A stretch of DNA of 32,000 nt from Pseudoalteromonas translucida KMM 520 (GCF_001465295.1 NZ_CP011035.1:180001-212000), one strand, 5' to 3'; positions 8,796 through 32,000 are shown, numbered from the stretch's first letter. The notes: a model not told the origin generated them from the letters alone. Translations and numbers: made by a program.

Positions 8796-8829
8796 GCTTG
8801 CTGTCGCTATGTATTAGCGACAGCAAAGC
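8796..8829 (+). other. intercistronic stem-loop between hsdR and hsdM
   Basis: GCTGTCGCT-atgtatt-AGCGACAGC 9-bp stem, extendable past one bulge. There is no T-run, so it is probably not a full terminator. Confidence 0.3.
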
Positions 8830-8907
8830 ATTAAACCAATCAGAATAAACAGCTTTCATATTTGCCTTTAGTCGCTGTTTATAAAAATAATCAAACAAGA
8901 GAATACT

Positions 8908-10398
8908 ATGTCTATCAGTTCAGCTATTAAATCTATTCAAGATATTATGCGTAAAGACGCCGGTGTCGATGGCGACGCACAACGCCTTGGTCAAATGTCG
9001 TGGTTACTATTTTTAAAAGTATTTGACGCACAAGAAGAAGAGCTAGAACTAGAATTAGACGACTACCGCGAGCCAATTCCAGAGCAATTTTTATGGCGCA
9101 ATTGGGCGGCCGATAACGAAGGCATAACGGGCGATGAGCTTTTAGAGTTTGTAAACGATAAGCTGTTTATTGAACTTAAAAACCTAACCGCACCTATAGA
9201 TAAAAATCCACGCGGCTATGTAGTAAAAGAGGCATTCTCTGATGCCTTTAATTACATGAAAAACGGCACGCTACTGCGCCAGGTTATTAATAAGCTAAAC
9301 GAAATAGACTTTACCGACTCAAAAGAGCGCCACTTATTTGGCGACCTGTACGAGCAAATACTAAAAGACTTACAAAGCGCAGGTAACGCGGGCGAATTTT
9401 ATACCCCGCGCGCAATCACTAAATTTATAGTGGCAGTAACCGACCCAAAACTAGGCGAGTCAATCATGGACCCTGCGTGTGGTACCGGTGGCTTTTTAGC
9501 GTGTGCATTCGACCATGTAAAAGCAAACTATGTTAAATCGGGCGACGACCACCAAATATTGCAAAAGCAAATACACGGCGTAGAAAAAAAACAACTTCCG
9601 CACTTACTGTGTACTACCAACATGATGCTTCACGGCATTGAGGTACCGGTACAAGTTAAACACGGCAATACATTAAATAAACCGCTTTCAAGCTGGGACG
9701 ACCAAGTAGATGTAATCATCACCAACCCTCCGTTTGGCGGCACCGAAGAAGACGGCATAGAAAAAAACTTTCCAAGCGACATGCAAACCCGCGAAACAGC
9801 CGACTTGTTCTTACAGCTCATTATTGAAGTGCTTAATGAGCCTTCAGCCGGTAAAGAAGGTGGTCGCGCGGCGGTTGTATTGCCAGATGGCACCCTATTT
9901 GGTGAAGGCGTTAAAACCAAAATTAAAAAGCTGTTAGTTGAGGAATGTAACTTACACACCATAGTACGCTTACCTAATGGCGTATTTGCCCCGTACACAA
10001 GTATTAAAACTAACATATTGTTTTTTACTAAAGGCACGCCAACCAAAGACGTGTGGTTTTACGAGCACCCATACCCAGCTGGGGTTAAAAATTACAACAA
10101 AACCAAACCTATGAAGTTTGAAGAGTTTAAAACCGAACTTGAATGGTGGGGCAGCGAGGCAGACGGTTTTGCCAGCCGTACTGAGACAGAGCAAGCGTGG
10201 AAAGTATCAATCGACGATATCATTGCCCGTAACTACAACCTCGACATTAAAAACCCGCATGTAGGTGAGGTAATCAGCCACGATCCGCAAGAGCTATTAG
10301 CCGATTACTCAAAGCAGCAAGCAGACATACAAGCATTACGCGATCAGCTTAAAGGCATATTGTCAGCAGCCCTTTCAAAAGATACTGAGGGCAAGTAA
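8908..10398 (+). CDS. hsdM: type I R-M N6-adenine DNA methyltransferase subunit
   Basis: AdoMet motif DPACGTGGFL, catalytic motif NPPFGG, and an HsdM N-terminal-like region. Confidence 0.95.
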   Translation: MSISSAIKSIQDIMRKDAGVDGDAQRLGQMSWLLFLKVFDAQEEELELELDDYREPIPEQFLWRNWAADNEGITGDELLEFVNDKLFIELKNLTAPIDKNPRGYVVKEAFSDAFNYMKNGTLLRQVINKLNEIDFTDSKERHLFGDLYEQILKDLQSAGNAGEFYTPRAITKFIVAVTDPKLGESIMDPACGTGGFLACAFDHVKANYVKSGDDHQILQKQIHGVEKKQLPHLLCTTNMMLHGIEVPVQVKHGNTLNKPLSSWDDQVDVIITNPPFGGTEEDGIEKNFPSDMQTRETADLFLQLIIEVLNEPSAGKEGGRAAVVLPDGTLFGEGVKTKIKKLLVEECNLHTIVRLPNGVFAPYTSIKTNILFFTKGTPTKDVWFYEHPYPAGVKNYNKTKPMKFEEFKTELEWWGSEADGFASRTETEQAWKVSIDDIIARNYNLDIKNPHVGEVISHDPQELLADYSKQQADIQALRDQLKGILSAALSKDTEGK

Positions 10399-12212: not shown

Positions 12213-12214
12213 CT

Positions 12215-13561
12215 ATGGCAATTATTTTCGAACAGCCACAAACTATTGCGCAGTTGTTAGCGCAACAACTCACGATTCCTGAGTACCAAAGGCCCTACAA
12301 ATGGCAGGCCAAGCACGTTAATCAGTTAATTGATGATATTTTTAATCACCGCACTAAGCCGTGTTATCGGCTCGGTACTGTTGTATTGCATCAAGATAAA
12401 GAATCAGTGAATGAGAATAAAAAACAGACACTGAACATCGTTGATGGCCAGCAGCGGCTGCTCACTTTAACGCTGCTTTGCACCATTCTTGATGGGGCTG
12501 AGAAAGCTATTTCATCCTCTTTGCTTGAACATAAGTTTGAATCATCAGTCAGTATCGACAACCTCAAAAATAATGCTCAGATCATTTCTGAACGAGCAGC
12601 AAGTTTGACTGCCCCCGAAAAGCAGGAATTGCTTAATTTTGTGCTTAACAAGTGCGAGCTTATTCAAGTTACGTTAGATGACTTGAGTGAAGCGTTTCAG
12701 TTTTTTGATTCTCAGAATGCCCGTGGTAAAGCCCTTGCGCCGCACGATTTGCTCAAAGCATATCACCTGCGTGAAATGATGGACGCCACGACACAAACAG
12801 AACGCTTGCACCATGTAAGCCTGTGGGAGCAAGGCGTTAACCCTGATGATGATTCAGCCAATTTGCACACCATCATGGGGGAGTTTTTGTTTCGTATGCG
12901 CCGATGGATTGACGGTGATTACGGCATTGCGTTTAGTCGTCATAACATTGATGTATTCAAGGGTATTAACTTGGATAACGCACAATATGCTTATGTGGAT
13001 GCAATGCTGGCGCTCGATTACGCGATTGAAACCTTTAATGGCGATCCTATGCGAAAATGGGACAAGCAAACTAAGAGTTACCCTTTCCAAGTAGAACAGG
13101 TGATGATCAACGGTAAGCGCTTTTTTGAGTACATTCAGCATTATATGACCATTCACACAAGCTTGTTTGTTGGCAACGAGGCAAAGCTCTCTTTATTTGT
13201 TGATAAATACGCTAGGTACAGTGGCAGTCACCGTAAAGGGGATAGCTATGTGCGTAATTTATTTTTGTGTACCGTGATGTATTACTACGACAAATTTGGT
13301 GATGTGGAGTTAGAAAAAGCGGCGCAGATTTGTTATCGCTGGGCATATTATTTACGCCTTGAATTGCAACGTATTGGCATGGAATCAGTTGATAACCACG
13401 CTAAAAGCCGTAGTGGGTTATTTAGAGCAATTCGCAAAGCTGTTCACCCTCAACAGGTGTTGAACTTTCAGCCGCTTTACATAAAAGTGCCTAAGTTTAA
13501 TAATGCTGAGGAAGTACAAGGGTTTATTGAAGCAATGAAATCGGGAAGTATCAATGAGTGA
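12215..13561 (+). CDS. DUF262 (ParB-like / GmrS-type) domain protein with no obvious His-Me finger nuclease domain
   Basis: Motifs [21 protein letters not shown] and [18 protein letters not shown]. The ATG lies 2 nt after the hsdS stop. Confidence 0.75.
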
Positions 13562-15488
13562 TGTGAACCAAGTAGAACAGTTATCCGTTAGAGCGCTTTT
13601 TAATAAGAAAACTGAATATATTATCCCTATTTATCAGCGGAATTACGCTTGGGGTGCACCTGAGATTGAGCAGCTTATTCAAGATATTAGTGATGCCGCA
13701 GGGCTTATTACTCAGCCAGGTGAAACTGTTAGCGTAAAACAAGTAAAATATTACCTGGGTAGTCTTGTTGTGTATCAGCGCACAACTCATTCACAGCAAT
13801 CAAATGTGGTGTACGAGACTATTGATGGGCAGCAAAGGCATACCACGCTCTCTATTTTATTGGCGTATCTAAAACATCGAAAAGTATTGGATGAGAGTGA
13901 CCTAGCAGGGTTAGACATTAACCTAACTTTTGATAGTCGCCCAAAATCTTCCAGAGCGTTAGATGATATTTATAAAGGTAAGTCAAGTGGCGAGGCTGAA
14001 GAGCCTAACATTCATGCTGCGTTGAACATTATTCAGCGTTACTTCAAAACCAAAGGGCTAGATACAGAGGCTAAAATTAAGCAGTTTTGCGAATACCTGT
14101 TAGATAACGTCACTATATTGAAAGTCGTTGTGCCACCGCAAACCGATCTTAATCACTACTTTGAGATCATGAATAATCGTGGTGAGCAGCTAGAAAAACA
14201 CGAAGTATTGAAAGCGAAATTCATGGCTACACTGAGCAATGATGAGGGAAGAAACTGTTTTTCGACCATTTGGGATGCTTGCTCAAATATGACGCGTTAC
14301 ACACAGATGGGTTTTCAATCTGATTTGCGTAAAGAAGTATTTGGTGACAATTGGCAAACAATGCCAAAAAGCTTTGATGTAATTCAAGCAAAGCATACGA
14401 GTAAACAGCAAAAACAAGATGCAATGACACTACGCGAAATTATCGACAACAAAACACCCAGTGAAAATACCGATGATGAAGAGCGCGAGAAAGAAGAGCG
14501 CTTTGGTACGGTTATCGACTTTTCAAACTTCTTACTCCATGTACTAAAGTTGATGCCTGAGATTAAGGGTGTATCGCTTGATGATAAAAAATTACTTAAT
14601 GCGTTTATCAGTAAAGATAATGGCTTGAAGGTAGAAGCCAAAACCTTTGTATATGAGTTGCTTAAGTACCGAATTCTATTTGATAGCTACATCATCAAGC
14701 CTGACCAACACAATGAAAAGCGTAAGTGGAGCCTACAAACACTCATAGCTAATACGAGCGGTACTAGCACAAGTTCTAGCTATAATAACTCTTTTGGTAA
14801 AGACCAAGACACATTAAATGAAAAATTGCGCATGATATTAGCAATGTTCCATGTATCAAACCCAGCCTTAGTTTATAAGCGCTGGTTAAATGATGCGCTA
14901 AGTATTTTGAATAGGAATGTTACACAGGATGCGGATTTAAGCATTGATGGAGAGGTGTACTTAACTGAGCTTGAACGCTTAAGCGATCGCTATTTTGAAG
15001 AAATCACTGTCGGCCAATGTTTAACATTTAGTGATGAGAATCAAGGCGTATTACACCAAGGAACGGGAGTTCAAAACTTCGTGTTTAATCGGTTGGATTA
15101 CCTTTTGTGGAAGCGTTTATCAGATGGTGAAACATTTGATGGTAAAGGTAAAAAAGAGCTTGGAAAGCACTTTGATGATTTTCAGTTTAATTTTAGAACT
15201 TCTGTTGAGCATTACTTCCCGCAAACTGATCCATCAGGTGCAAGCAAAATGGAGGATGTCGATCGCTTTGGAAATTTATGTTTAATTTCGCCAAGTAGTA
15301 ACTCGAGGCTCAGCAATTACTCCCCGCAGGATAAAAAGTCCTTCTATCGTGAGAACAATCGTGCCGAGAGTTTAAAGCAAGCGATTATGATGAGTTACGA
15401 TGACTGGGGCCCCGTGGGACTAGGTCGAACAAATTTAAAAAACCATGAATCGGCCATGTTAAAGGTTTTATCCGCAATAAAAATATGA
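13554..15488 (+). CDS. GmrSD-family type IV restriction-like protein (DUF262 + DUF1524 His-Me finger)
   Basis: Motifs [21 protein letters not shown] and [18 protein letters not shown]-terminal VEHYFPQ...[17 protein letters not shown]. It overlaps the upstream gene by 8 nt. Confidence 0.8.
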
Positions 15489-15868: not shown

Positions 15869-17635
15869 ATGGATATACTAGAAAGTTTACTACGCAGTTT
15901 TGATACAAATGTTGTTAGCGGTGCTGTATTAATTTTAATGTTTTTTGTTTTTGGTTCAGGTTTGTTTTACACCAAAAAGGCTAGGCAAGTTGAGTTTGTT
16001 CAGTTTGTTCCAACACTATTAACTACTATGGGTATATTTGGTACTTTTTTAGGTATAGTTCTTGGTTTATTAGAATTTAACCAAAATGATATAGAAGCCA
16101 GTATTCCGTTGTTGCTAGCGGGCTTAAAAACTGCATTTATTACAAGTTTAGCGGGTATATTTTTATCTTTAGTGTTTAAAACACTGTCTACGTTCTCATT
16201 TTTAAAACCTAAGCAACCAGAAGATAGCATTTCTCATGCAACACCTGAGGCGATATTAGGTGCTATGCAAGCGCAGGTTGCAGAAACAAAAGTTTTAAAA
16301 GAAGCGATTGTTGGTAATGAAGAGTCAACACTGTTTGGTCAATTAAAAATATTACGTGGTGATATAAATGACAATGCAAAAACATCGATAAATATTGCCC
16401 AAGAACAAGCTGTAAAACAACAAGAGAGCTTTGAGGCGTTTAGTGAAAAGCTATGGCTTAAACTACAAGACTTTGCAGATACTTTATCAAAGTCAGCTAC
16501 AGAGCAAGTTATTGAAGCATTAAAGCAGGTGATTAGTGATTTTAATAACAACTTAACAGAGCAGTTTGGTGATAACTTTAAACAATTAAATGAAGCGGTA
16601 ATTAAATTAGTTGAATGGCAAGAAAACTATAAAATTCAGCTTAAAGAAATGAGTGACCAATACGCTCATGGTGTTGCTTCTATTTCTGCTACTGAATCAT
16701 CTGTTGCTCATATTAGTGAGCAAAGCCAAATAATTCCTCAATCAATGGGTGAACTAAAAGGTGTTATGGAAGTTAATCAGCATCAATTAGCTGAGCTTGA
16801 ACGCCATCTAGAGGCCTTTAAAGATATGCGCGACAAAGCTGTTGAAGCCGTCCCGCAAATTCAAAAGCAAGTCGAAGCTACAGTAAACGATATATCGGCT
16901 GCTGTAACAACAGCGAGTGACCATTATAAAACCCTTCTTACACAATCAGACGATTACATAAAAACTCACGTTCAGACATCTAATGATTTATTAGACAAGT
17001 TTGCTCATGAAACAGAGAAAGGCATTAATAGTGTTGGTGAGCGTTTGATTGAAAGCTCAGACAAGATTGCTACAGAAGTAGATAATGCTGGCACTGATTT
17101 CATAAATCGTACAAGCAGAACAAATGAAAGTTTACAAGTTAGCTCTGATGCTTTATCAAAAAATAGTAAAGAGATACAGTATCACTTAGAGGGTACCGTT
17201 AGCGACCTAAACAATCATATGCGTGACATGATTGAAAAACTAGTAGATGACGCTAAAGATATTACTTCAACTATGAAGCAAGCTAATCAAAACCTTGTGA
17301 CCGATACAGAGCAGGTGCGTGACACTGTGGTTAAGTCTGCAGAAAAACTTCAGCAACGCCTTAACGAAGTTATTGACGATGCAGCTACACAGCAAATTAA
17401 TCAAGCTAAACGTACCTTTGACGCAATGGAAGATGAGGTTAAAAAGCAGGTTGGTATGACTGGGGAAGCTGTAGACTCGCAACTAAAACTTATTGATACT
17501 GCGATGCAGCAAGAAATAAACCGTGTAATGAACGAAATGGGTAAGGCACTTGCACAGGTAAGCGGTAAATTTGTTGATGATTATATTAAGCTAACTAAAG
17601 CGATGAATGAAGTTGTAAGTCAGCGAGTAATGTAA
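15869..17635 (+). CDS. zorA: Zorya ZorA (MotA/ExbB-like membrane domain + long coiled-coil tail)
   Basis: N-terminal TM helices with MotA/ExbB-type motifs (TTMGIFGTFLGIVLGL and LLAGLKTAFITSLAGIFLSL), then about 470 aa of coiled-coil-like sequence. zorB and zorE lie downstream. Confidence 0.85.
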   Translation: MDILESLLRSFDTNVVSGAVLILMFFVFGSGLFYTKKARQVEFVQFVPTLLTTMGIFGTFLGIVLGLLEFNQNDIEASIPLLLAGLKTAFITSLAGIFLSLVFKTLSTFSFLKPKQPEDSISHATPEAILGAMQAQVAETKVLKEAIVGNEESTLFGQLKILRGDINDNAKTSINIAQEQAVKQQESFEAFSEKLWLKLQDFADTLSKSATEQVIEALKQVISDFNNNLTEQFGDNFKQLNEAVIKLVEWQENYKIQLKEMSDQYAHGVASISATESSVAHISEQSQIIPQSMGELKGVMEVNQHQLAELERHLEAFKDMRDKAVEAVPQIQKQVEATVNDISAAVTTASDHYKTLLTQSDDYIKTHVQTSNDLLDKFAHETEKGINSVGERLIESSDKIATEVDNAGTDFINRTSRTNESLQVSSDALSKNSKEIQYHLEGTVSDLNNHMRDMIEKLVDDAKDITSTMKQANQNLVTDTEQVRDTVVKSAEKLQQRLNEVIDDAATQQINQAKRTFDAMEDEVKKQVGMTGEAVDSQLKLIDTAMQQEINRVMNEMGKALAQVSGKFVDDYIKLTKAMNEVVSQRVM

Positions 17636-18333
17636 TGGAAAAGATATTTGGCTCTCAAAACACCTCACAAGATAGTGGTGACCATTGGTTAACTGTATCA
17701 GATTTGATGGCTGGTCTAATGGTTGTATTCTTGTTTATAGCTATTGTTTTTATGATGATAACTCAAAAAGAAAACGACAAGATTAAAGATGTTGCTGTTG
17801 CTTACCAACAAAACCAAGTTGCTATATATGAAGCTCTAGAAAGCGAGTTTGAAAAAGACCTTGATAAGTGGGGAGCAACAATAGACAAAGAAACGTTAGC
17901 GTTTAACTTTCAATCTCCAGATGTGTTATTTGCTAATAATGAAACTAGATTAAGCGACGCATACAAAGAAATATTAAACGACTTTTTCCCCCGTTATATC
18001 AACGTGCTTGCCCCGTTTAGGGACTCTTTAGATGAAATTCGTATTGAGGGTCATACCTCAAGTGTTGGTTTAAGAGGCTCTACAGAGGCGCAAGCATACT
18101 TTTATAATATGCGATTATCTCAGGGGCGAACACGTTCTGTATTAGAGTATGGCTATGCACTTATGCCTAATGAGTCTGATTGGATTAAAGCTAATATTGC
18201 TGCAGTTGGTTTTTCATCTTCACGCTTGATTAAAGAGAATGGAGTGGAAGATGCTGCAAGGTCAAGGCGTGTATCCTTTAGGGCTATTACTAATGCTGAT
18301 ATTCAAATAAAACGGATACTGGAGGCGCAGTAA
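17635..18333 (+). CDS. zorB: Zorya ZorB (MotB-like TM with conserved Asp + OmpA-like peptidoglycan-binding domain)
   Basis: DHWLTVSDLMAGLMVVFLFIAIVF and IRIEGHTSSVG...NMRLSQGRTRSV. The start overlaps the zorA stop. Confidence 0.85.
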   Translation: MEKIFGSQNTSQDSGDHWLTVSDLMAGLMVVFLFIAIVFMMITQKENDKIKDVAVAYQQNQVAIYEALESEFEKDLDKWGATIDKETLAFNFQSPDVLFANNETRLSDAYKEILNDFFPRYINVLAPFRDSLDEIRIEGHTSSVGLRGSTEAQAYFYNMRLSQGRTRSVLEYGYALMPNESDWIKANIAAVGFSSSRLIKENGVEDAARSRRVSFRAITNADIQIKRILEAQ

Positions 18334-19469
18334 TGAAGCTAACAGTTGATTTTAGTGCGTTACATAGAGCGGTAGCACCCTTAGGGCAAGTTGTTACAGA
18401 CTTTTCTATTACCAGTGATGCTTCTGAACTTGAGAGCATTGGCAGTCATCTTAATCAAGGGATGATTTTAGGTAAAGATGTACAGTTAGATGAAATTGAT
18501 GGGTCAAACGGTGTACTAAACTATGATGGTCATCAGGTTATGCTATATATACCAGATCAAGGAGATGACATTGAAGCAGTGTTGTCTAATGGTAAATTGG
18601 GACGACGTATCCATGTGGCAGAGTGTTCTACTCTTGAGTTGATGCGAGAAACAGGCCGGTTTAAACGCTATGATGTAATTAATCGCGTTGATGGTTTTTT
18701 TCCTGTATTTGGCTCTAGCTACAGAGGAGGGCCTAATACAGAGGGGGAGGCTGATTTAGGTGTATGCAAAAACTGCTTAAAAATTCTTAATTACAAGGGT
18801 TATTCTACTCAAAGTTCTCAAGTTAAAAACCAAGTATTTAATAGTTTTTCATTTGAACAATTTTTCGAAGTTTATAGCTCCTACTTTAAAAGTTTACCTG
18901 TTAACAGTAAAAAAAGCACAAGCGGTTATACGTCAGATTGGCCATCAATTTCGGCTAAGTTAAGAAGCGATTTAAATTACTCATGTGAGCAATGCGGCAT
19001 TGATCTTAAATCTGAAAAAAGGCTCTTACATACTCATCATATCAATGGGAATAAAGCAGATAATGAACGAGATAATTTGAGAGTACTTTGTGCAGATTGC
19101 CATAAAAAGCAACCACATCATGACCATATATATGTAAGTAACTCAGATATTCTCAAAATTAACCAGCTTAGACGAGAACAACATAAGTTTGACGTGTTTA
19201 ATTACGATAATCTGCGAGAGTGTGCAGATACAGCATTAGATGGCCTTTTACAAAAATGTGAGTCGACTAGATTACCAGGTGCTGAGCTAGGGATTGTTAT
19301 TCAAGATAAAGAAACATTTGTTTCAATCGATCTTTGCTGGCCAAGGCGTAAAGTAGCGGTGCTTATTAATATGAGTAATTCTAATATATTAAGAAAACAC
19401 GGCTGGACTGTATTTACTGCATTCGACGCCTTGAATAACTTTGAGAATTTTCAGCGCCAAATTAGATAA
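18333..19469 (+). CDS. zorE: Zorya type II ZorE (HNH endonuclease)
   Basis: HNH motif CEQCG...HTHHINGNKADNERDNLRVLCADCHKK. It is translationally coupled to zorB. The ZorA-ZorB-ZorE gene order defines type II Zorya. Confidence 0.8.
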   Translation: MKLTVDFSALHRAVAPLGQVVTDFSITSDASELESIGSHLNQGMILGKDVQLDEIDGSNGVLNYDGHQVMLYIPDQGDDIEAVLSNGKLGRRIHVAECSTLELMRETGRFKRYDVINRVDGFFPVFGSSYRGGPNTEGEADLGVCKNCLKILNYKGYSTQSSQVKNQVFNSFSFEQFFEVYSSYFKSLPVNSKKSTSGYTSDWPSISAKLRSDLNYSCEQCGIDLKSEKRLLHTHHINGNKADNERDNLRVLCADCHKKQPHHDHIYVSNSDILKINQLRREQHKFDVFNYDNLRECADTALDGLLQKCESTRLPGAELGIVIQDKETFVSIDLCWPRRKVAVLINMSNSNILRKHGWTVFTAFDALNNFENFQRQIR

Positions 19470-19927: not shown

Positions 19928-20491
19928 ATGGAGCAAGCATTACAGTTTAATAGGTTATACAAGGATATTTCAGAAAGTCTGAAAAGTACTCAAGGAGATC
20001 TTTCCTCTCTAACGTTAGATAACCAAGAAGGTAAAGAAAAACTCAGTGGTATTGTTGCTCAACTAGCATCAATCAAAAGTCACTTTGATAGTGAGCTAGG
20101 GCTATTGCAAGAAAATGCCGAATGGGAAAACTTTGTTATTGCATTTTTTGGTGAAACTAATGCTGGCAAAAGTACAATTATTGAGTCTCTTCGCATACTG
20201 TTTAATGAAGAATCTCGTCAAAACTTAATTAATTCAAACATTAATGATTTAAATGAAGCAAAGCAAACATTAGAAGAACATGTGAGGATTGTGAAAAGCT
20301 ATATTGAACAGGTTGCACTAACACACGCTACACAATACCAATCTTTGCAAAATGAAGTTATTAAAATAACCGATATCATTCGACTAGAATCTTCCCAAAG
20401 AGTTAAGAAAAAAAATATTATTAGCCTTTTTATGGGAGCTTTTTTAGGAACTGGGTTAACTAGTTTGTGTTGGATTATGTTTAGAGGCTAA
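19928..20491 (+). CDS. leoC: LeoC-like protein: N-terminal part (G1 P-loop) of a split dynamin-like GTPase, with a C-terminal TM segment
   Basis: P-loop FFGETNAGKSTIIESL (nt 20150-20176), a coiled coil, then the hydrophobic tail IISLFMGAFLGTGLTSLCWIMF. The next gene starts 1 nt after the stop. Confidence 0.7.
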   Translation: MEQALQFNRLYKDISESLKSTQGDLSSLTLDNQEGKEKLSGIVAQLASIKSHFDSELGLLQENAEWENFVIAFFGETNAGKSTIIESLRILFNEESRQNLINSNINDLNEAKQTLEEHVRIVKSYIEQVALTHATQYQSLQNEVIKITDIIRLESSQRVKKKNIISLFMGAFLGTGLTSLCWIMFRG

Positions 20492-20492
20492 T

Positions 20493-22176
20493 ATGAATTT
20501 CGATACAGATGTTTCAATGGTCACGCCTTCTGGTACCCCAAAGATTAGTGGTGATGCAAAAAAATTAAATAAAAAAGATTTGGTAAATGAAACCTTTACG
20601 AAAATTGATTTGCTTGTTGACTCCTTCAAGGATGTTATTGATTCACATAGCATGATGTTTCGCACAGATGGAACTATCATTGGCACAGGTAAAGCTGACT
20701 TTACTCAGGGCAATACAACTTATGTGTTAAGTAATTCAGGTAAAAAATTTCATTTGATTGACGTTCCAGGAATTGAAGGTAACGAATCAAAATATGAAAC
20801 GATGGTAAAACAAGCTGTAGCTAAAGCCCATTTGGTTTTTTATGTCAACGGAACTAATAAAAAGCCCGAAAAAGTTACAGCAGAAAAGATTAAAAGCTAC
20901 TTAAACCGTGGCACACAGGTTTGCCCTTTATTAAACGTGAGGGGGAATGCTGACTCTTATGAATTTGAGGAAGATAGAATATCTCTGAGTAATGAGCATA
21001 ACAATACAGGCCTATTGCAAACCACCGAGGTGTTAGAGCAATGTATTGGAAAAAAAAGGCTTTTACCAGCTTATTGTGTTCAAGGTTTATTAGCATTTTC
21101 TTCATTGGCTAAAACAGAGCAAAATATATCAACAATTCATTCCTCTAGACAAAATGACCTTATAATCCAACAACGAAACTTTCTTAAGCACTTTCATAAA
21201 CATGAAGCCATGCAAGAATTTAGTGGCATTAAAAATATTGCTAATGTTTTAGAGAGTAAGGCTGCAACTTTTCGTGAAGACATCGTTGAAAGTAATAAAG
21301 AGAAAGTAAAAGAATTACTCAACGAAAAATCATCGATATTGAATAGCTTATTGTTTGATTACCGGTCTTTCTTTGAAAAAATTAAACCCGAATTCTCTGC
21401 TTGTGAAGCCTCTATCAATGATAAGTTCTACTTGTTTAAACAAAGTTTATGCAATGGGCGGCGAAACTTACTTGAGCAATTTTTTTCTAATCTTGCAAAC
21501 AAGGCTGATGATATTGTTGAAGATAACTTTGGGGATGAAGACTCAATATCTAGGCAGTTAAAGCTAGCGAGCAATGAGGGGCAAGAAAACTTAGTAAAGG
21601 AGTTCTCCGAGCACTTTAAAAAATGCGTTGATGTTTTGTTAGAGGACTTAAAAACTGCAATGTTGCGACTTATCGAAGATATTCAAAGAGTTGAATTTCA
21701 AACTGATTTAGAAAAAATCAAATCTCTAGATAAAGTTAACTTTCAAACTTCTGAAATAGAAATGGGTTTTGATTTAAAAGACTTTGGTAAGTTTGCTTTT
21801 AATATTGCATCTTATGCTCTATCAGGTTTTGCTATTGGTACTGCATTTCCGGGGATTGGAAATATTGTGGGTGCTATTGCTGGAGCAGTTGTTGGGATAC
21901 TTTCTAGTTTGTTATCAGTTTTCACAAGTAAAGCTAAGAGAATTAGAAAAGCCCAATCTAAGGTTCAAAGTAGAATTGACGATGCTCGCGATTCAGCCCT
22001 AAATAAGGTGACAGAGGATCTTGAGCAAGTTGTTAATGATGTCAGTGACAACATAATATCTCCAATTAAAGAACAGGTTGATCTTCTTCAAAAAAGTGTT
22101 AATGACCCTATTGAAATTATTAATCAACAAATAAAAATAATGGCTAATTTATCAGAAAAAGTGGAAGCAATGCCTT

Positions 22177-22199
<23 letters not shown>
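20493..22199 (+). CDS. leoB: LeoB-like dynamin-like protein (G2-G4 part of the GTPase, stalk, Gly-rich membrane paddle)
   Basis: It has no P-loop of its own. G3 is HLIDVPGIEG and a G4-like NGTNKK follows. The hydrophobic Gly-zipper is SGFAIGTAFPGIGNIVGAIAGAVVGILSSLLSVF. Confidence 0.7.
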
Positions 22200-25072
<2,873 letters not shown>

Positions 25073-25149
25073 TTTTTCACCCAAATTTGTATGCTTATTA
25101 GCATAACATTTCTTTCTTAATGGGTGGCCAAAATCACTGTACCACTACA

Positions 25150-25598: not shown

Positions 25599-26003
25599 CT
25601 ATTCAAAACCATGTGTTGATAGAGTGATAGTTACTGTAGCTTCAAATTTATCATTAACACTGGGCAAAACTTCTTTCGCTTTAAAAAATTTCGAATCGCT
25701 GTTTAAATTCCATGAATCTTCATTTGAAACCTTTTGAGTTTTAATAGAGCCATCTTGAAATTTATCTAGAGCTTTTGAAAAGCCTGCACTTACACCAAGA
25801 TTAAATGCTTCAAGAATAAGATTATCGATTTCAGGGGATGCCTCATTAAGTTTGCCGAGTTTTGCTTTCAACTCAGCAATGGCGTTATCCACGCCTTTAC
25901 ATTCAGAATCGAGGACTCCTGCTTCTCTTAATCTTTTAATTACGTAGTTTTGACCAATTTTATTATACATACCACCGTCTTTACTTTTTTTTCTTGTTTC
26001 CAT
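25599..26003 (-). CDS. hypothetical protein (134 aa)
   Basis: Strong RBS AGAGGAAA. It lies 12 nt downstream of the 214-aa gene. No motif recognised. Confidence 0.6.
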   Translation of the reverse strand: METRKKSKDGGMYNKIGQNYVIKRLREAGVLDSECKGVDNAIAELKAKLGKLNEASPEIDNLILEAFNLGVSAGFSKALDKFQDGSIKTQKVSNEDSWNLNSDSKFFKAKEVLPSVNDKFEATVTITLSTHGFE

Positions 26004-26015
26004 AAGGTTTCCTCT

Positions 26016-26660
26016 TTAATTATTAATCCAAATATTAGTTAAATTTTTTGTATCCATCATTTCGTTAATTTCAATTAGCTTTAAATATGCTTTATTCTTA
26101 CTAGCCTTTTGTTCTGGTTTAGCAAGCTTTGAATTTGCCATTGTGACGGGAGTTACGTTTATGTAGTGAAAGCTATCTAAGCGGGTAAGAACTTTATTCA
26201 AAATATCGGTAGAAACTGAAGTTTTAAATAACTTATGTAGGTGCTTTGTAAGCGGAGTGGGGTCTATTTCTCTTTCAAATCCATCGCTAAAAACAATATC
26301 TATCCCAAATTCACCATAATTTTCGAGGTCTAGCTCTTTTGAGGTACATAGGTAAACTATGCCTTCCCCGTTGTGACGCCATTCAAGTATTTCAAATAAG
26401 GCTAAGGCTATTTTAATATCCAGCGGTTGTAAGTTAGGGTTGGAGATAACATTTAAAACAAAATGCTCATATCCTTCAGGTGCTTTATCAAATGCAAATA
26501 CATCGCCATTGTTATTTTTAGTAGATATTTGTAACAGTGGGCGATGAATGTATGTCTCACCAAGAGCCATATATTCTTTCGATAATTTTGAGTTTTGGTG
26601 TTTATTTTTAATAACAATAGGATTATCGAATGAGCCCGGGTTTTTATTTATTATTTCCAT
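26016..26660 (-). CDS. hypothetical protein (214 aa)
   Basis: RBS AGGA. It is the first gene of a two-gene operon and is divergent from the AAA+ gene. No motif recognised. Confidence 0.6.
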   Translation of the reverse strand: MEIINKNPGSFDNPIVIKNKHQNSKLSKEYMALGETYIHRPLLQISTKNNNGDVFAFDKAPEGYEHFVLNVISNPNLQPLDIKIALALFEILEWRHNGEGIVYLCTSKELDLENYGEFGIDIVFSDGFEREIDPTPLTKHLHKLFKTSVSTDILNKVLTRLDSFHYINVTPVTMANSKLAKPEQKASKNKAYLKLIEINEMMDTKNLTNIWINN

Positions 26661-26899
26661 ATAAATCCTAATAAAGTTTAAATTATCGTTATTACCTAAT
26701 TTATTTAATTTTTTGTTTTTTTAAACAATACCTTACAAGATATTGCAAATTCCCAATGAAAAAACCAGAAAGAAAAAGCACTTAAATCATTTAAATTCAA
26801 TGTGTTGTGGTTTTTTTATTTGCTTTTTTTTACGTTGTAAAATACTACTTTATACCGGTTACTATGTACTTATTGATTACAAACAACTAGGTACACAGC

Positions 26900-28921
26900 A
26901 TGAGCACAACCTCTCAATTAAAACGTATTGTGGCACACTTTTCCACTGAATTATTAGAAGAGTTTAACATAGAAGGGCTTTCGCAAGATAAGCTATTTAA
27001 AAAGGCTTTATGTAACATTTCTGGCTTTAGTTATGCTAATTCACAAGGCTTAGATGTTGATGATTTGATAGCCCGATTAGAGCATTTAGCAATAAATACA
27101 ATGCCTAAAATGCTGCAAAAAAATGTGCATATATTTTGTAAAGCGTTTGGTCTGCCCAAAACGCTTACTCCTTTAGTTATTTTTTCGTGTTGTATGACGC
27201 TCAGTAAACCATTACGCGAACTTGTAGAGTACTTACGTGACGATTACGCGAGCGTTATTTTAGAAAAAATAGCTTACGTTCTTGGTTTTGATGAAGCACT
27301 ACTTAATAAGCAAATTAGTTTGGTTATTGAATCTGGTATGTATTCAATGGATATGGAGATATTTGCAGGGGAAGATGAGTTTTTAATTTTACCAAACTCA
27401 ATTGCTAAAAGCCTGCTCGAGGGTAAGTTAAATAGTGAAAGTGATATTTTATCTAACTTGGTTACCCCTTGTGAAGCTTCTGAACTTAGCGCTGCTGATT
27501 TATCTCACTTAGATTTAAATACTTTGCTTAAAGCTACGCAAAACGCAACAAAGAGCGGCGGGCAATCATTGAGTATTTTATTTTATGGCGTGCCAGGTTC
27601 GGGCAAAACTTCATTGGCGAAATATATAGCGCAAGCGTGTGGTTCGCAGTTGCTTAAGGTGCAAGCTAAAGGTAGTAATTTAATAAACCCAACAAACGAG
27701 CTCGATAGCCGAAGCGCAAGTTCTGAGCTGCGCTTAGAGCACTTTAATGTGGTAAGTAAGTTGGTAGGTAAGCGTAAAAAAACTATGCTGTTACTGGATG
27801 AATGTGAAAACATTTTTGAGCGTGATTTATTTTCAAAAAGCTTTTCAAAAGAGTTACTTCATACCTATATTGAAAATCATCCTGTAGTGAGTATTTGGAT
27901 CACTAATCATCTAGAAGAGTTACCACAGAGCGTTATTAGGCGATTTAATATTGTTTACGAAATTCCTGAGCTAAACAAAGCAACTAAAGAAAAAATGATT
28001 GGCAAATATGTTAAAGGTTTGAGTGTTGGTAACAGTTTTATAAGTAAATTAGCTACTCAACAAAACTTACTGCCAGCTCATATCGCTAAAGCGGTACATG
28101 TAGCAAGGTTATGTGGATTTAAAGCACAGACTGCGCGTGAATGCATAGAAGAGAATATTCAAGATACTTTAACTGCATGCGGCTTTTCGGCTCACGAATT
28201 AACTTATCAAGCAGCGCAAAAGTTTAATCCTGGAATGGTGAATATAGAGTCTGAGTATGCATCACTCGAACAGGTTGAAGAGGCTGTAATTGAATATTCG
28301 AGTTCACGAACTCTACTAACGGGCCCGCCAGGCACCGGTAAAACAGCTTTTGTAAATTACTTATGCGAAAAAGCTGATTTTAAACTTATATCTGTTAAAG
28401 CATCTGACTTATTAAGCAAGTGGGTTGGCGAAAGTGAGCAAAATATTGCTCAACTATTTAAGCAAGCTACACAAGAAGGAAGTGCAATATTTATTGATGA
28501 GGCAGATAGCTTGCTATGTAGCCGTGAACAAGCGAAGGCTAATTGGGAAGTGCAAACAGTTAATGAATTACTATGCCATATGGAGCAATTTCAACTCCCA
28601 CTTTTTGCAGCAACTAACTTTGCTAAAAATTTAGATAAAGCGGTAATGAGGCGATTTGATTTTAATTTAAATTTAACCTATTTAACCTCGGTTCAGGCTA
28701 AGCAATTATTTAAAGATACATTAGGCCCAGGAGTGTTAAATAAGCACTTAATGCATGAGTTATTCCAGCTTACAAAGCTCACACCTGGTGACTTCGCGAT
28801 TGTAAAAAGGCAAATGAAGTTTTCAAAAAAGCGAATGACTCAAGAGCGAATGTTATCGGTTTTACAAGAGCAAAACGCTCTAAAAGAAGACGGAAAGCAG
28901 AAGATTGGGTTTGTTATTTAG
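26900..28921 (+). CDS. tandem AAA+ ATPase (degenerate D1 + classical-clade D2, Cdc48/Vps4-like) with a unique about 210-aa N-domain
   Basis: D1 has Walker A GVPGSGKT and Walker B LLLDECE. D2 has Walker A GPPGTGKT, the SKWVGESEQNIAQLF motif, Walker B IFIDEADS, sensor-1 AATN and MRRFD arginines. Confidence 0.8.
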   Translation: MSTTSQLKRIVAHFSTELLEEFNIEGLSQDKLFKKALCNISGFSYANSQGLDVDDLIARLEHLAINTMPKMLQKNVHIFCKAFGLPKTLTPLVIFSCCMTLSKPLRELVEYLRDDYASVILEKIAYVLGFDEALLNKQISLVIESGMYSMDMEIFAGEDEFLILPNSIAKSLLEGKLNSESDILSNLVTPCEASELSAADLSHLDLNTLLKATQNATKSGGQSLSILFYGVPGSGKTSLAKYIAQACGSQLLKVQAKGSNLINPTNELDSRSASSELRLEHFNVVSKLVGKRKKTMLLLDECENIFERDLFSKSFSKELLHTYIENHPVVSIWITNHLEELPQSVIRRFNIVYEIPELNKATKEKMIGKYVKGLSVGNSFISKLATQQNLLPAHIAKAVHVARLCGFKAQTARECIEENIQDTLTACGFSAHELTYQAAQKFNPGMVNIESEYASLEQVEEAVIEYSSSRTLLTGPPGTGKTAFVNYLCEKADFKLISVKASDLLSKWVGESEQNIAQLFKQATQEGSAIFIDEADSLLCSREQAKANWEVQTVNELLCHMEQFQLPLFAATNFAKNLDKAVMRRFDFNLNLTYLTSVQAKQLFKDTLGPGVLNKHLMHELFQLTKLTPGDFAIVKRQMKFSKKRMTQERMLSVLQEQNALKEDGKQKIGFVI

Positions 28922-29023
28922 TTTTTAGAATTAGTTACACCTAATTTTCGATACAGAATAGTGGACTTCTCACAGCTTATAACTTAAAAACAGTTAAAAG
29001 CTTTAATTCTTAAAAGGATATCT

Positions 29024-29791
29024 ATGAAAGTTAATGAACAGTATGTCTATATATACAGAGACCCAAAGACTTCCAAAATTAAATATGCGGGGAGGGGAAA
29101 GTCTGCTACACGAGCCTCATCGCACCAAAAAAAGACACATAACAGTGAACTTGAGAATTGGCTGAAAGATGCAAGCTATAAGCTCGAAATAGCAGGCCCG
29201 TATGAAAATGAACAAACAGCAATTGCTGTTGAAGAAGCATTAATTTCTACTCACCAGCCTGAATTTAATATGCGAAAAGAGTCTTCTAAGTACAGTTTTC
29301 GCCCTTTGGGTGTGCCAGAAAAATACGTTACTAGGCTTGAGCAACAACCTTTAGGATATGGCGATTTGTTTAAAGGGAATACAGAGTCAATTATATTAGT
29401 TAAGGTCACAGATAAAACGTTAGGTGATAGAGTTGGGTATAATTTAGTAGAGCCACCTAGTGATGCTGCAATCGTTGAAAGAGTAGAAAAATACTGGCAA
29501 TTAGGAAATGATAAATATCTAGGTACTTGGATTAAAGATAAAAAACTGTCTCCGACGTTAATACTTGGTATTACGGGGAGTCCTGGAAACCAAGTAATAA
29601 TAGCCTCTCTTGAAGTTGATATTTCTGCATGGGATGCGGTTGAAGTTATGAAAAAAAAGCTCATAACAGTCCCTTTAAAAGATCGATCAAAGTTAGATAA
29701 ACATTATTTACGAGGGTACCGCATCGCTTTATCTGCTGACATAAAATTTGGACGAAGTATCCAAGAGCACTTTAGAGTAATTCAAAAATGA
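29024..29791 (+). CDS. GIY-YIG nuclease domain protein with an unknown about 160-aa C-terminal domain
   Basis: YVYIYRDPKTSKIKYAGRGK matches GIY...YIG. It is followed by R..SH, AVEEALI (the catalytic Glu position) and EFN (the Asn position). The alignment to I-TevI/UvrC-type motifs was done by eye. Confidence 0.6.
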   Translation: MKVNEQYVYIYRDPKTSKIKYAGRGKSATRASSHQKKTHNSELENWLKDASYKLEIAGPYENEQTAIAVEEALISTHQPEFNMRKESSKYSFRPLGVPEKYVTRLEQQPLGYGDLFKGNTESIILVKVTDKTLGDRVGYNLVEPPSDAAIVERVEKYWQLGNDKYLGTWIKDKKLSPTLILGITGSPGNQVIIASLEVDISAWDAVEVMKKKLITVPLKDRSKLDKHYLRGYRIALSADIKFGRSIQEHFRVIQK

Positions 29792-29810
29792 CTCCACACC
29801 ACTTAATATA

Positions 29811-30785
29811 ATGATCTCACACCGCCATTTATCAATTTTAGAGCTTGTGCCAATAGCGCCTAGCTCTATCTCGATCCTTCAACTTCAGCAAAAGCTGGTT
29901 GATCGCGGTATTGTTTTATCAACCCGCATGCTTCAACGAGATCTTCAATCACTATACGAGCAAGGCTGCTTCGGTCTTGAAAAAGACACGCGCAGTAAAC
30001 CCTATGGCTGGTCTATCAATGCGCAGTGGAGAGGTGGTAACTCAAAAGTAATGAGCAGCGAAGTGGCAGAGCATTATTTGTTGTTGGAGCAATTACTACC
30101 GCAATCTGTACCCAGTGATGTTAAACAGTCGGTACATATTAAAGCAGAGCAGGCGCTTAAACGTTATAATGGCCATATGCCTGAGTGGCTTTCAACCCTG
30201 CCAAAACCGTCGTTAAAAGTGAATGTTGATACTCAGTTAGTTGAGCAAATTGAGCATGCGATTATGCATAAGCGTGCAGTGAGCGCTGAGCTTTATAGAG
30301 TACTTTATGATGAGGCTCATTGGCTAAAATTTGCGGAGTTAAGTTTTTACAACTTAGTTGAGCAAGGCGGTGTGTTAATGGCTCAGTTTATGGTGGGAGA
30401 GCTTCATGACAAGTGTTATCAAATGCCGGTTTACCGCATTCGCAATGTACACATTTTGCAAAAAACACGACGAGAGCCAAGCACTGAGCAATTAAAGTCG
30501 TTACGTAGTGCGATTAACAAAGGCATGTCGCAAGAAGCGATCGAGTTAGTTGTAAAAGTACCTATTCATTCGGCGGTTAATCAAGGCTTTATTGAACTTG
30601 GTGAGCTGATTAATAAACAACAGATTGATGATAAAAACGTATTACTTACCTATCAAACTATTGATACTGAACAACTAGTCGATGAGCTATTTAAATGTGC
30701 CCATTGGCTTGAGGTTATAAAACCTGAAAAGTTGCGGCAAAGAATCACTACAAAGCTTAAAGCGGCCGCTAACATTTATAAATAA
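29811..30785 (+). CDS. wHTH-WYL-WCX transcriptional regulator (BrxR/CapW-like)
   Basis: N-terminal HTH (ISILQLQQKLVDRGIVLSTRMLQRDLQSL). Central WYL-like beta region (...QMPVYRIRNVHIL). C-terminal WLEVIKPEKLRQRI, typical of the WCX end of this family. Confidence 0.65.
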   Translation: MISHRHLSILELVPIAPSSISILQLQQKLVDRGIVLSTRMLQRDLQSLYEQGCFGLEKDTRSKPYGWSINAQWRGGNSKVMSSEVAEHYLLLEQLLPQSVPSDVKQSVHIKAEQALKRYNGHMPEWLSTLPKPSLKVNVDTQLVEQIEHAIMHKRAVSAELYRVLYDEAHWLKFAELSFYNLVEQGGVLMAQFMVGELHDKCYQMPVYRIRNVHILQKTRREPSTEQLKSLRSAINKGMSQEAIELVVKVPIHSAVNQGFIELGELINKQQIDDKNVLLTYQTIDTEQLVDELFKCAHWLEVIKPEKLRQRITTKLKAAANIYK

Positions 30786-30799
30786 CTTTAACTAGTTTA

Positions 30800-30829
30800 G
30801 GTGCGTCAAAAATTGACGCACCTGTTTGC
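30800..30829 (+). terminator. hairpin terminator, attenuator or operator between the WYL regulator and the FtsZ-like gene
   Basis: GGTGCGTCAA-aaa-TTGACGCACC 10-bp stem followed by TGTTTGCT, a weak T-tract. Confidence 0.5.
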
Positions 30830-30858
30830 TATGCTCCTTTTAAAGTTAAGGAGTAGTT

Positions 30859-31947
30859 ATGTTTCAATTAATTCAGCAAAATGATGGTTTATCGATTGGT
30901 GTATTTGGTATTGGTGGGTGTGGCTGTAATACTTTTAACAGTATTTTTGAACAACGCGAGTCTGAGCAGGCGCACTTGTTCAGCGTTAATACCGACAAAG
31001 TGGTACTTGAGCATACGCAAAGTGATGAAGCAGTACTTATAGGTGCAGAGCTAACTCATGGATATGGTGCGGGTGCCGACCCTAAAGTTGGGCTGCAAGC
31101 GGCAGAAGAGAGTAAAGATCAGCTTTTAACGCTTATTAATGGCTGCGATATAATACTGTGTGCAACAGGGTTGGGTGGTGGAACTGGGACTGGCGCTAGC
31201 CCGTATATTGCGCAACTTGCTATTGAGCAAGCCAAACCCATTATATTTGTTGCTACATTGCCATTTAGTAGTGAAGGGCAGTTTAGAAGCAATATAGCGC
31301 AAGCAGGTTTAAATGAGCTTAAAGAGCATGCTAATGCTGTTATTACTCTCCCAAATGATCAACTGATAGAAGTCCTTGGTAACGATATCGGCTTATTTGA
31401 TGCCTTCAAACATAGTAACCAAATACTCCATTCACTGATAAAGTCACTCATCGATATGCTTTGCTATCAAGGCTTAATAAACGTTGATTTAAATGACTTT
31501 GCTAAAATTATGGACTGCCAAGGTGATGCTGTACTTGGGGTAGGCAAATGTAATGAAGAAAGCGAGTTAACTGCTGCGCTTGATAGTGCACTTAATAATC
31601 CGCTGGTTAATCAAGTTGATATGTCATCAAGTACCGGCGTGATAATACAAGTGAACTGTAAAGATGAAATTTCACTAGGTAGTTATAACCTTATTACAGA
31701 TACAGTGCGCCAGCAGGTAAGCCCTAATGCGTTAGTTATTTGTGGTGTTTCAAAAATTGAAAACTTAGTAACCAATTATGAGCTACTGGTTATTGCTACG
31801 GGCGCGAGTTCAAAAATGATACTTGATGACACTAAAATTGAGTCAAGCTCTAAAGTAGTCGCCACTAAACCAAAAGCATCTGATATTTTTGATATTCCTG
31901 CTTTTATAAGAAATCAATCTGCACCACCTAGTAAAAGCTCTTTATAG
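30859..31947 (+). CDS. FtsZ paralogue (tubulin/FtsZ GTPase) in a non-dcw context
   Basis: Strong RBS AAGGAG. T1 loop GIGGCGCN, where canonical FtsZ has GGGGGN. Tubulin signature GLGGGTGTGASP. T7 loop NVDLNDFAKIM. C-terminal peptide DIFDIPAFIRNQ (nt 31882-31917), compared with E. coli DYLDIPAFLRKQ. The upstream gene is a WYL regulator rather than ftsA. Confidence 0.85.
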   Translation: MFQLIQQNDGLSIGVFGIGGCGCNTFNSIFEQRESEQAHLFSVNTDKVVLEHTQSDEAVLIGAELTHGYGAGADPKVGLQAAEESKDQLLTLINGCDIILCATGLGGGTGTGASPYIAQLAIEQAKPIIFVATLPFSSEGQFRSNIAQAGLNELKEHANAVITLPNDQLIEVLGNDIGLFDAFKHSNQILHSLIKSLIDMLCYQGLINVDLNDFAKIMDCQGDAVLGVGKCNEESELTAALDSALNNPLVNQVDMSSSTGVIIQVNCKDEISLGSYNLITDTVRQQVSPNALVICGVSKIENLVTNYELLVIATGASSKMILDDTKIESSSKVVATKPKASDIFDIPAFIRNQSAPPSKSSL

Positions 31948-32000
31948 GTTTTGTAAGCAAAGAAAAAGTTGTATTGCAATATGTAAGCGCTACTCTAATA

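Follow-up and report, generated by a model that had tools for sequence, protein, structure and literature searches.

When an ATPase gene and a nuclease gene stand side by side in a bacterial defence island, do the two make up a dedicated system, or is the nuclease a self-sufficient enzyme in a position that other nucleases can also take? The question is raised by a locus in Pseudoalteromonas translucida KMM 520, in a stretch of 32,000 nucleotides (nt) (NZ_CP011035.1:180001-212000) that is called the window below and from whose start all positions are counted. A reading of the bare sequence (the sequence-only reading) had proposed that a 673-amino-acid (aa) tandem AAA+ ATPase and a 255-aa GIY-YIG nuclease, encoded at 26900-29791, form a candidate ATPase–nuclease defence pair that could not be placed in any named system. 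The analysis reported here favours another answer, with a probability of about 0.5: the nuclease would be an autonomous modification-dependent restriction enzyme, related to the single-gene system CMoRE/PD-T4-3, that sits in a diversifying cassette slot of an AAA+-X-WYL operon, X being the variable gene. The four plus-strand open reading frames (ORFs) of the locus were confirmed in the ORF list, and their coordinates and sizes and the 102-nt gap between the first two are exactly as first described. The features that carry the argument are the following.

26900..28921, plus strand: tandem classical-clade AAA+ ATPase, 673 aa (Pfam AAA, two matches)
28918..29809, no strand: exchangeable cassette segment, the sole gap in blastn homology to the locus of Pseudoalteromonas sp. 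JB197 (L011) across 26381-31993
29024..29791, plus strand: CMoRE/PD-T4-3-like nuclease, 255 aa, starting 102 nt downstream of the AAA+ gene
29024-29308, plus strand: GIY-YIG nuclease domain, about aa 1–95, the N-terminal part of the 255-aa protein
29351-29788, plus strand: predicted sensor domain, about aa 110–255, the C-terminal part of the 255-aa protein
29811..30785, plus strand: WYL/WCX-type protein, 324 aa, a presumed ligand-sensing transcription regulator, starting 19 nt past the nuclease stop codon

The nuclease and its family

In direct family scans with Pfam, NCBIfam, PHROGs and PADLOC, no match of the 255-aa protein passed the threshold; the Pfam GIY-YIG model stayed sub-threshold at E 0.039, and the NCBIfam UvrC model matched the N-terminus at 7e-4. 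A word-indexed search found nine relatives, and an exhaustive profile search was used instead, which gave 257 representatives at 50% identity, mostly of 250–285 aa. Because these match end to end, the protein belongs to a real two-domain family. In a 64-sequence alignment of this family, Y9, Y21, G23, R30, E70, N82, W158, G185 and G231 are invariant, and position 7 is aromatic (F or Y) without being invariant (Y7 in the window protein).

An AlphaFold2 model built from the 64-sequence alignment reached a predicted local distance difference test score (pLDDT) of 94.3 and a predicted template modelling (TM) score of 0.81; an earlier model from nine sequences had a pLDDT of 56, and its Foldseek result counted as no more than a lead before the larger alignment's model confirmed it. 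When the PDB was searched with Foldseek, the top four matches were crystal structures of CMoRE/PD-T4-3 (E 4e-8 to 1e-6, probability 1.0, 260–296 aligned columns), and on 9u7u and 9u75 these columns span both domains; the global TM-score to CMoRE is about 0.3, as expected if a flexible linker reorients the domains. The next matches were UvrC GIY-YIG domains (target-normalised TM-score 0.63–0.72), and the C-terminal domain weakly resembles the YTH/EVE (THYN1) modified-base readers. The GIY-YIG fold proposed in the sequence-only reading is thus borne out by the invariant residues and by the UvrC and CMoRE structures, with the motif spacing corrected from YIY-x10-YAG to YIY-x9-YAG, and its guess that the C-terminal ~160 aa form a nucleic-acid reader agrees with a CMoRE match that covers both domains and with the YTH/EVE resemblance.

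At the sequence level, a PDB profile search with the nine-sequence profile gave no match, and the 64-sequence family profile found 9u75 as its best match (E 2e-5, residues 7–102, the nuclease domain), which speaks for GIY-YIG at the profile level in spite of the sub-threshold direct Pfam score. The PADLOC PD-T4-3 profile matches three of the nine close relatives and 11 of the 64 wider family members (best 2.8e-7) and is the sole PADLOC family to match more than one of the 64; in the other direction, the family hidden Markov model (HMM) matches bona fide PD-T4-3 cassette proteins at 5e-13 and 6e-11. Between the C-terminal domain and that of bona fide PD-T4-3, the motif LDxxxLRGR is the only sequence-level alignment.

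CMoRE has been reported as a type IV restriction endonuclease, encoded by a single gene and specific for 5-hydroxymethylcytosine (5hmC) and glucosyl-5hmC (PDB 9U75, 9U7U), in which the C-terminal domain binds 5hmC and the GIY-YIG domain cuts; it protects as one cloned gene, 274 of 274 surveyed systems are single-component, and it is defined by a GIYxY-YIG triad together with an acidic autoinhibitory loop over the active site in 'most' members (PMC12923530). The window protein is similar in size (255 aa against about 247 aa) and in plan, with a GIY-YIG nuclease at the N-terminus, a flexible linker and a predicted C-terminal sensor. The tyrosine triad is identically spaced (2 + 12 residues; Y7/Y9/Y21 here, Y17/Y19/Y31 in CMoRE), the HMM alignment sets the Y-V-Y of CMoRE on window residues 7–9 (Y7-V-Y9...Y21-A-G), the catalytic Arg and Glu are conserved, and CMoRE is both the best structural and the best profile match in the PDB. 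The two proteins differ in that they share about 14% identity, in that the window gene is embedded in an AAA+/WYL operon, and in the loop region, where the 'EVAAADDDD' insertion of CMoRE has no counterpart in the window protein, which reads HQKKTHNSELEN, and the DDDD is replaced by the invariant H39-N40. From sequence and model taken together, the window nuclease is classed as a distant CMoRE/PD-T4-3 relative and thus as a divergent form of a single-gene system already known. The earlier statement that the combination fits no named system is not supported for the nuclease, which belongs to the superfamily of a named single-gene one (PMC12923530).

As with CMoRE, homologues of the window nuclease occur as standalone genes. 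At 37–62% identity, they lie beside HigBA/helix-turn-helix, integrase, GmrSD-like or PIN-ankyrin/radical-SAM genes on five unrelated contigs, and none of the five has an AAA+ neighbour. By analogy with the single-gene CMoRE, and from these standalone homologues, the window nuclease would be able to act autonomously. A tblastn search of the 255-aa protein against 50,697 phage records gave no match. Within the nuclease gene there is also a 137-aa antisense ORF (29251-29664, minus strand), which has a counterpart antisense ORF in L101 and is most likely spurious.

A cassette slot between the AAA+ and WYL genes

Orthologues of the AAA+ protein with 84–95% identity are present in many Pseudoalteromonas species; the Pseudoalteromonas loci came from a metagenome scan and from contig look-ups, the general genome-contig scan having listed none. 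A blastn comparison of the window with the JB197 locus gave homology over 26381-28917 and 29810-31993; it is lost 4 nt short of the AAA+ stop codon and returns 1 nt ahead of the WYL start codon, and between these points 892 bp in the window replace 991 bp with an HNH_2 gene in JB197. This is a clean cassette replacement at the AAA+/WYL gap.

The contents of the slot were surveyed in 14 related loci. Most Pseudoalteromonas relatives carry HNH_2 proteins of several divergent types; for instance, in JB197, P. lipolytica and P. pernae the gene after AAA+ encodes an HNH_2 protein of 283–321 aa, not the 255-aa protein. The HNH_2 slot proteins (~300 aa) match the EVE-HNH enzyme VcaM4I with their C-terminal HNH half (2.7e-26); their divergence (36–95% identity) has gone in step with that of their hosts. 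The slot holds bona fide PD-T4-3 in L097 and L105 (1.5e-31 and 7e-27, respectively), the CMoRE-like gene of the window in L101 (97% identity) and a multi-gene insert in L104; in L098, L099 and L102 it encodes a 205-aa protein that carries a D...EVK motif. For the 205-aa protein, Pfam, PADLOC and PDB sequence searches were empty, and the label PD-(D/E)xK-like is taken solely from its D...EVK motif. Regardless of the cassette present, the AAA+ protein is 93.5–94.3% identical to that of the window. A common adaptor domain was sought in the cassette proteins by BLAST and unfiltered HMM search, and none was found beyond the GIY-YIG domain: the GIY-YIG, HNH_2 and 205-aa classes have no domain in common, and the two GIY-YIG cassette types have just their nuclease domain in common. 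Since this very slot is occupied in close relatives by other nucleases of restriction type, it appears to diversify restriction specificity.

VcaM4I, which the HNH half matches, is an EVE-HNH modification-dependent endonuclease (PDB 6YEX) that acts alone in experiments (PMC7897488). Like the alternative HNH_2 proteins of the slot, it joins sensor and nuclease domains in one chain; its nuclease fold is unlike that of the window protein, and the Pseudoalteromonas HNH_2 proteins differ from it in their N-terminal domain, which has no detected EVE similarity and was found at this locus type only. HNH_2 restriction-like genes also gather elsewhere without this AAA+ gene, as in a defence island (L174 5596-9444, GCA_001604385.1) where three of them lie amid AbiEii, DUF3800, RloB/AAA_21, FRG and JetD genes.

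The gap from AAA+ to cassette is 46–124 nt, and that from cassette to WYL, measured in nine loci, is 6–19 nt in all of them but L109, where it is 62 nt. Because these gaps are short, it is likely that the AAA+, cassette and WYL genes are co-transcribed as one operon. Scans for promoters and terminators were not informative: the DNA is AT-rich, and promoter-like sites were fewer than in shuffled sequence.

Alternative GIY-YIG and HNH genes at one intergenic position, with sharp homology breaks, are also what free-standing homing-endonuclease-like selfish genes, such as seg/mob of T-even phages, might leave behind. We consider this origin highly improbable: the best relatives are the restriction enzymes CMoRE and VcaM4I and not proteins of I-TevI or Seg/Mob type, the 255-aa protein has no counterpart in the phage records searched, the divergence of the HNH_2 cassettes with their hosts suggests long residence, and the resemblance of the C-terminal domain is to modified-base readers, not to the DNA-binding modules that homing enzymes carry. 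Under the preferred reading, that of an autonomous restriction enzyme in an exchangeable slot, the C-terminal domain would read a modified base in incoming phage DNA and the N-terminal GIY-YIG domain would then cut the modified DNA, the nuclease gene being one putative allele of an exchangeable cassette within a conserved AAA+/WYL operon.

The AAA+ ATPase and its WYL partner

The 673-aa protein consists of a family-specific N-domain (about aa 1–220) and two AAA modules, D1 (about aa 221–400) and D2 (about aa 460–640). Pfam AAA matches in two stretches (D2, residues 472–592, E 6e-45), and SKWVGESE, IFIDEAD, AATN and MRRFD are all present in the translation, which agrees with the tandem AAA+ protein with a classical-clade D2 and its own N-domain seen in the sequence-only reading. 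That D1 is partly degenerate, as had also been supposed, is contradicted by an alignment of 10 family members (26–84% identity), in which Walker A G230..K236, Walker B D300/E301, N336 and R347/R348 of D1 are invariant. In both rings the Walker A/B, sensor and Arg residues are unchanged across this alignment, and GxxGxGK, DE and RR(F) are invariant in both modules, as is characteristic of a classical-clade tandem. The ATPase motifs of D1 are thus intact by alignment, and since they are invariant across the ten members D1 is predicted to be catalytically intact; the aromatic-hydrophobic-Gly pore loop, present in D2 (KWVG), is missing from D1. Two further invariant C-terminal stretches, LTPGDFA (L627-A633; 28778-28798) and an IGF tail (I669-F671; 28904-28912), are specific to this AAA+ family, and the LTPGDFA pattern was one of the search patterns in the AAA+ locus scan.

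In a PDB sequence search the nearest solved chains were VAT, Cdc48, p97 and NVL, with the match confined to D2. Like Cdc48, p97 and VAT, the protein pairs two AAA modules of the classical clade in which Walker A/B and the second region of homology are intact; it differs from them, with their double-psi-barrel N-domain and pore loops in both rings, in lacking a pore loop in D1 and in having an N-domain without a Pfam match, and it scores 79 bits against the TIGR01243 CDC48 cut-off of 803. The N-domain (residues 1–220) had no match in any family library searched, including Pfam. The likeliest role of the ATPase would be ATP-driven protein remodelling through the D2 pore.

Several other identities were considered for the ATPase and rejected. 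IetAS was reportedly described by Gao et al. in 2020 as an AAA+ ATPase, IetA, with a protease, IetS. IetA gives the best PADLOC (2e-40) and NCBIfam (9e-36) match of the window protein and is likewise a classical-clade AAA module found in defence islands; the match is limited to D2 (residues 454–629; NCBIfam IteA, residues 456–627, 123.8 bits against 510), IetA is single-module and paired with the serine protease IetS, and no protease gene lies nearby. The TRIP13 profile, too, matches over D2 only. A McrBC-type system was dropped, as neither McrB nor McrC was matched in Pfam, NCBIfam or PADLOC, the ATPase is of the classical clade and the nuclease has its own sensor domain. PF20030 in distant AAA+ relatives is another AAA-type match (bpMoxR), not an N-terminal effector domain. 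A phage origin was dropped despite a full-length match to phrog_10401 (2.5e-67), since the viral-contig scan gave only one true member of the AAA+ family and the tblastn search with the nuclease was empty.

The 324-aa protein downstream of the slot matches PADLOC WYL profiles at 6e-12 (residues 134–320) and 8.6e-6 (residues 4–307) and Pfam WCX at 6.8e-5 (23.6 bits against a cut-off of 23.9), with no match to the Pfam WYL model itself; its homologues in Rhodoferax, Diaphorobacter, Pantoea and Fuscovulum carry the RefSeq name 'WYL domain-containing protein'. Among the matches listed, AAA+ relatives at 25–36% identity come from genera that include Alteromonas, Colwellia, Haemophilus, Pseudomonas and Polaromonas and are also present on plasmids, and none of these distant relatives has an HNH_2 or CMoRE-like neighbour among the loci listed. 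A WYL homologue lies in the flank of the AAA+ gene at 15 of about 30 non-Pseudoalteromonas loci, at 11 of them within one gene, in the following orders.

Rhodoferax and Diaphorobacter (Betaproteobacteria): AAA+, then DUF2779, then WYL
Sphaerotilus: WYL, then AAA+, then SIR2, with a 4-nt overlap of AAA+ and SIR2
Haemophilus: WYL, then one gene, then AAA+, then SIR2
Pantoea, Fuscovulum, L025 and L036: AAA+, then WYL directly, with no gene between
Several other AAA+ loci: no WYL within the flank

These gene orders make AAA+/WYL a recurrent cross-genus link in which the gene between or beside the two is optional and variable. Plasmids and defence islands of Beta- and Gammaproteobacteria carry the pair, as does one plasmid of an alphaproteobacterium (Fuscovulum). 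The sequence-only reading correctly named the WYL regulator and the FtsZ paralogue as neighbours and missed the WYL protein as the cross-genus partner of AAA+; of the co-occurrence it had raised for AAA+, GIY-YIG, WYL and FtsZ-like genes, AAA+/WYL recurs across genera, the GIY-YIG partner is replaced, and FtsZ is confined to Pseudoalteromonas. In the limited collection of literature searched, no description of an AAA+/WYL/effector module was found. Another recurrent small partner of AAA+ is a DUF6641 protein of about 145 aa, encoded 22–35 nt after it in Alteromonas sp. A079 (L016 8823-9257) and in two metagenome contigs (L106 4648-5088 and L107 7820-8260); in L016 a tyrosine-recombinase gene (Phage_integrase family) abuts the AAA+ start.

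BrxR and CapW are wHTH-WYL-WCX (winged helix-turn-helix, WYL and WCX) regulators of defence loci (PMC9122601, PMC9122588), and type IV enzymes account for 17.6% of the defence associations of BrxR-family WYL regulators (PMC9122601). The window resembles these loci in having a WYL/WCX gene in an apparent operon with a type IV-like restriction gene within a defence island. It differs in that the WYL gene lies downstream of the nuclease and not upstream of the regulated system, and in that the conserved partner is an AAA+ ATPase, AAA not being mentioned in PMC9122601. By analogy with BrxR and CapW, the WYL protein is the probable transcriptional regulator of the operon, and the AAA+ ATPase would be a conserved partner of the WYL protein that is not dedicated to the window nuclease.

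The same gene orders admit a more integrated interpretation, the chief rival of the preferred reading, which we put forward only tentatively and regard as rather unlikely: AAA+, the variable gene and WYL could be one undescribed modular anti-phage system of Proteobacteria, with a Cdc48-like double-ring unfoldase and a WYL sensor as its core and a swappable effector that the ATPase hexamer activates, licenses or potentiates. The effectors would be type IV-like nucleases in Pseudoalteromonas, where the FtsZ paralogue would also be controlled, and DUF2779 or SIR2 elsewhere, and the ATPase–nuclease pair of the window would be one instance. The order AAA+, X, WYL recurs in both Gamma- (Pseudoalteromonas) and Betaproteobacteria (Rhodoferax, Diaphorobacter), SIR2 follows WYL and AAA+ in Sphaerotilus and Haemophilus, the intergenic gaps are short enough for an operon, and P. 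pernae keeps the AAA+/HNH_2 adjacency without WYL or FtsZ. However, no common adaptor domain unites the cassette classes, and near-identical AAA+ proteins stand beside unrelated folds; the window nuclease family is standalone in five of five other contexts; CMoRE and VcaM4I act alone experimentally (PMC12923530, PMC7897488); and AAA+ and WYL are also directly adjacent, many AAA+ relatives having no WYL or recognisable effector nearby. A system of similar design is SIR2-HerA/DUF4297-HerA, in which a hexameric ATPase works with an alternative SIR2 or nuclease effector (PMC11472057). The wider AAA+ family resembles it in that a ring ATPase gene is followed by an interchangeable SIR2 or nuclease gene, and differs in that the ATPase is a Cdc48-like tandem AAA+ and not of HerA/FtsK type, that it is known here from genes alone, and that the slot nucleases are of kinds that act alone.

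Several of the observations also weigh against an autonomous nuclease, or against its kinship with CMoRE. The PADLOC PD-T4-3 profile misses the window protein even at E 10, and homology to CMoRE at the sequence level was demonstrated for the nuclease domain alone. The acidic autoinhibitory loop is missing, so that control from outside may be needed, a point that also favours a licensing ATPase. In none of the Pseudoalteromonas-type loci examined is the slot empty: AAA+ is followed every time, on the same strand, by a gene of nuclease or nuclease-like type, as would suit a required effector and a hotspot equally, and full-length homologues of the HNH_2 cassettes were found at this locus type only. 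Elsewhere, AAA+ followed by SIR2 or DUF2779 suggests AAA+/effector coupling in at least part of the family. A SIR2-only protein normally requires a partner. The ATPase–nuclease pairing first proposed therefore survives as a constant adjacency in the Pseudoalteromonas-type loci examined and is not supported as an obligate pair, given the five nuclease contexts without AAA+, the unrelated nuclease folds beside AAA+ genes of 93–95% identity and the distant AAA+ relatives without such a nuclease.

Flanking genes, island setting and significance

Three further features border the AAA+, cassette and WYL genes.

26016..26660, minus strand: conserved divergent gene, 214 aa, a companion of the AAA+ gene in both Pseudoalteromonas and Alteromonas
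30798..30824, no strand: perfect palindrome with 11-bp arms, AGGTGCGTCAA-N3-TTGACGCACCT, between the WYL and FtsZ-like genes (terminator scan)
30859..31947, plus strand: FtsZ paralogue, 362 aa (Pfam Tubulin and FtsZ_C)

The FtsZ paralogue matches Pfam Tubulin at 2e-39 and FtsZ_C at 3e-14 and scores 276 bits on TIGR00065, under the cut-off of 295; it retains the GGGTGTG tubulin signature and, ahead of a short additional tail, the canonical C-terminal peptide DIPAFIRNQ that binds FtsA/ZipA. It comes after WYL in L011, L013, L096-L099, L101-L103 and L109, and its synteny with AAA+ is absent in P. pernae (L014) and in every other genus examined, being found in Pseudoalteromonas only. This synteny is thus specific to one lineage, and the functional link between the FtsZ paralogue and the AAA+ ATPase that had been suggested is neither supported nor excluded, no result connecting the two. 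The arms of the palindrome are almost invariant in nine loci, with diverging flanking DNA and no compensatory changes, a pattern that suits an operator bound by protein better than an RNA hairpin; it is a candidate operator or weak terminator. No second copy is present in the window, including upstream of the AAA+ gene.

These features bear on a further reading, in which AAA+-WYL(-FtsZ-like) is a stress or DNA-damage module and restriction genes merely pile up in a recombination-permissive gap at the island edge. The WYL regulators DriD and PafBC are reported to govern DNA-damage responses, including cell-division inhibition; the canonical C-terminal peptide of the FtsZ paralogue, the invariant palindrome and the conservation of the block across many Pseudoalteromonas species next to variable upstream DNA would all suit such a module. 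We nevertheless judge it improbable, because AAA+ relatives elsewhere lie on plasmids and amid BrxD, SIR2, HEPN, PLD, SNF2 and dynamin-like genes, the FtsZ paralogue is missing outside the Pseudoalteromonas loci examined, and no link of AAA+ to DNA damage emerged.

On the other side of the block, homologues of the 214-aa gene (40–59% identity) lie directly upstream of AAA+ in L011, L013, L014, L096-L099, L101, L102, L104 and L108. The gene is divergent from AAA+ in every Pseudoalteromonas locus, its homologue in Alteromonas L016 is on the same strand, and its product has no match in Pfam, NCBIfam, PHROG or PADLOC. A 134-aa gene stands beside it (the pair spans 25599-26660, minus strand), with homologues in L013, L098, L099 and L102; neither of the two could be annotated.

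The defence-island setting first proposed for the gene pair was confirmed. Upstream of the AAA+ blocks of Pseudoalteromonas, the DNA is a variable island with Type I restriction-modification, NERD-helicase or Zorya/Eleos genes. In the window, LeoC, LeoB and LeoA of Eleos (19928-23898, plus strand) match their PADLOC profiles end to end, and an IS3-family insertion sequence of 1266 bp follows (23884-25149; 36-nt imperfect inverted repeats at 23884-23919 and 25114-25149). Eleos had been called disrupted by this element; the element is there, and the damage was overstated, since its contribution to leoA is limited to the stop codon and the four codons before it, so that Eleos is trimmed rather than disrupted. 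Further upstream, three co-directional ORFs of 588, 232 and 378 aa (15869-19469, plus strand) probably belong to a Zorya-like system, as the 588-aa product matches a MotA/TolQ/ExbB-type chain (8vvi, 1e-39) and ZorA chains; in L101, three ORFs equal to these in size are found upstream of its AAA+ block, with no Eleos genes or insertion sequence in between. Six large co-directional ORFs of 356, 819, 496, 604, 448 and 644 aa occupy 5105-15488 (plus strand), and the 448- and 657-aa ORFs just upstream of the AAA+ block in L097 may be the same genes.

For the family, the window nuclease defines a divergent CMoRE branch of about 257 clusters at 50% identity that current defence-finder profiles mostly miss. 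Because the branch is divergent and lacks the autoinhibitory loop, its members may read another DNA modification; if so, they would be useful for understanding marine phage–host conflict and as a reagent for mapping modified bases. The locus is an example of an operon within which precise cassettes bring about the exchange of restriction specificities, and it exposes a conserved and unstudied partnership of a Cdc48-like AAA+ ATPase with a WYL protein, a backbone with an exchangeable slot that is still uncharacterised. If the AAA+/WYL pair acts as sensor or engine for interchangeable effectors, it would represent a new type of defence architecture, with a protein unfoldase as its basis.

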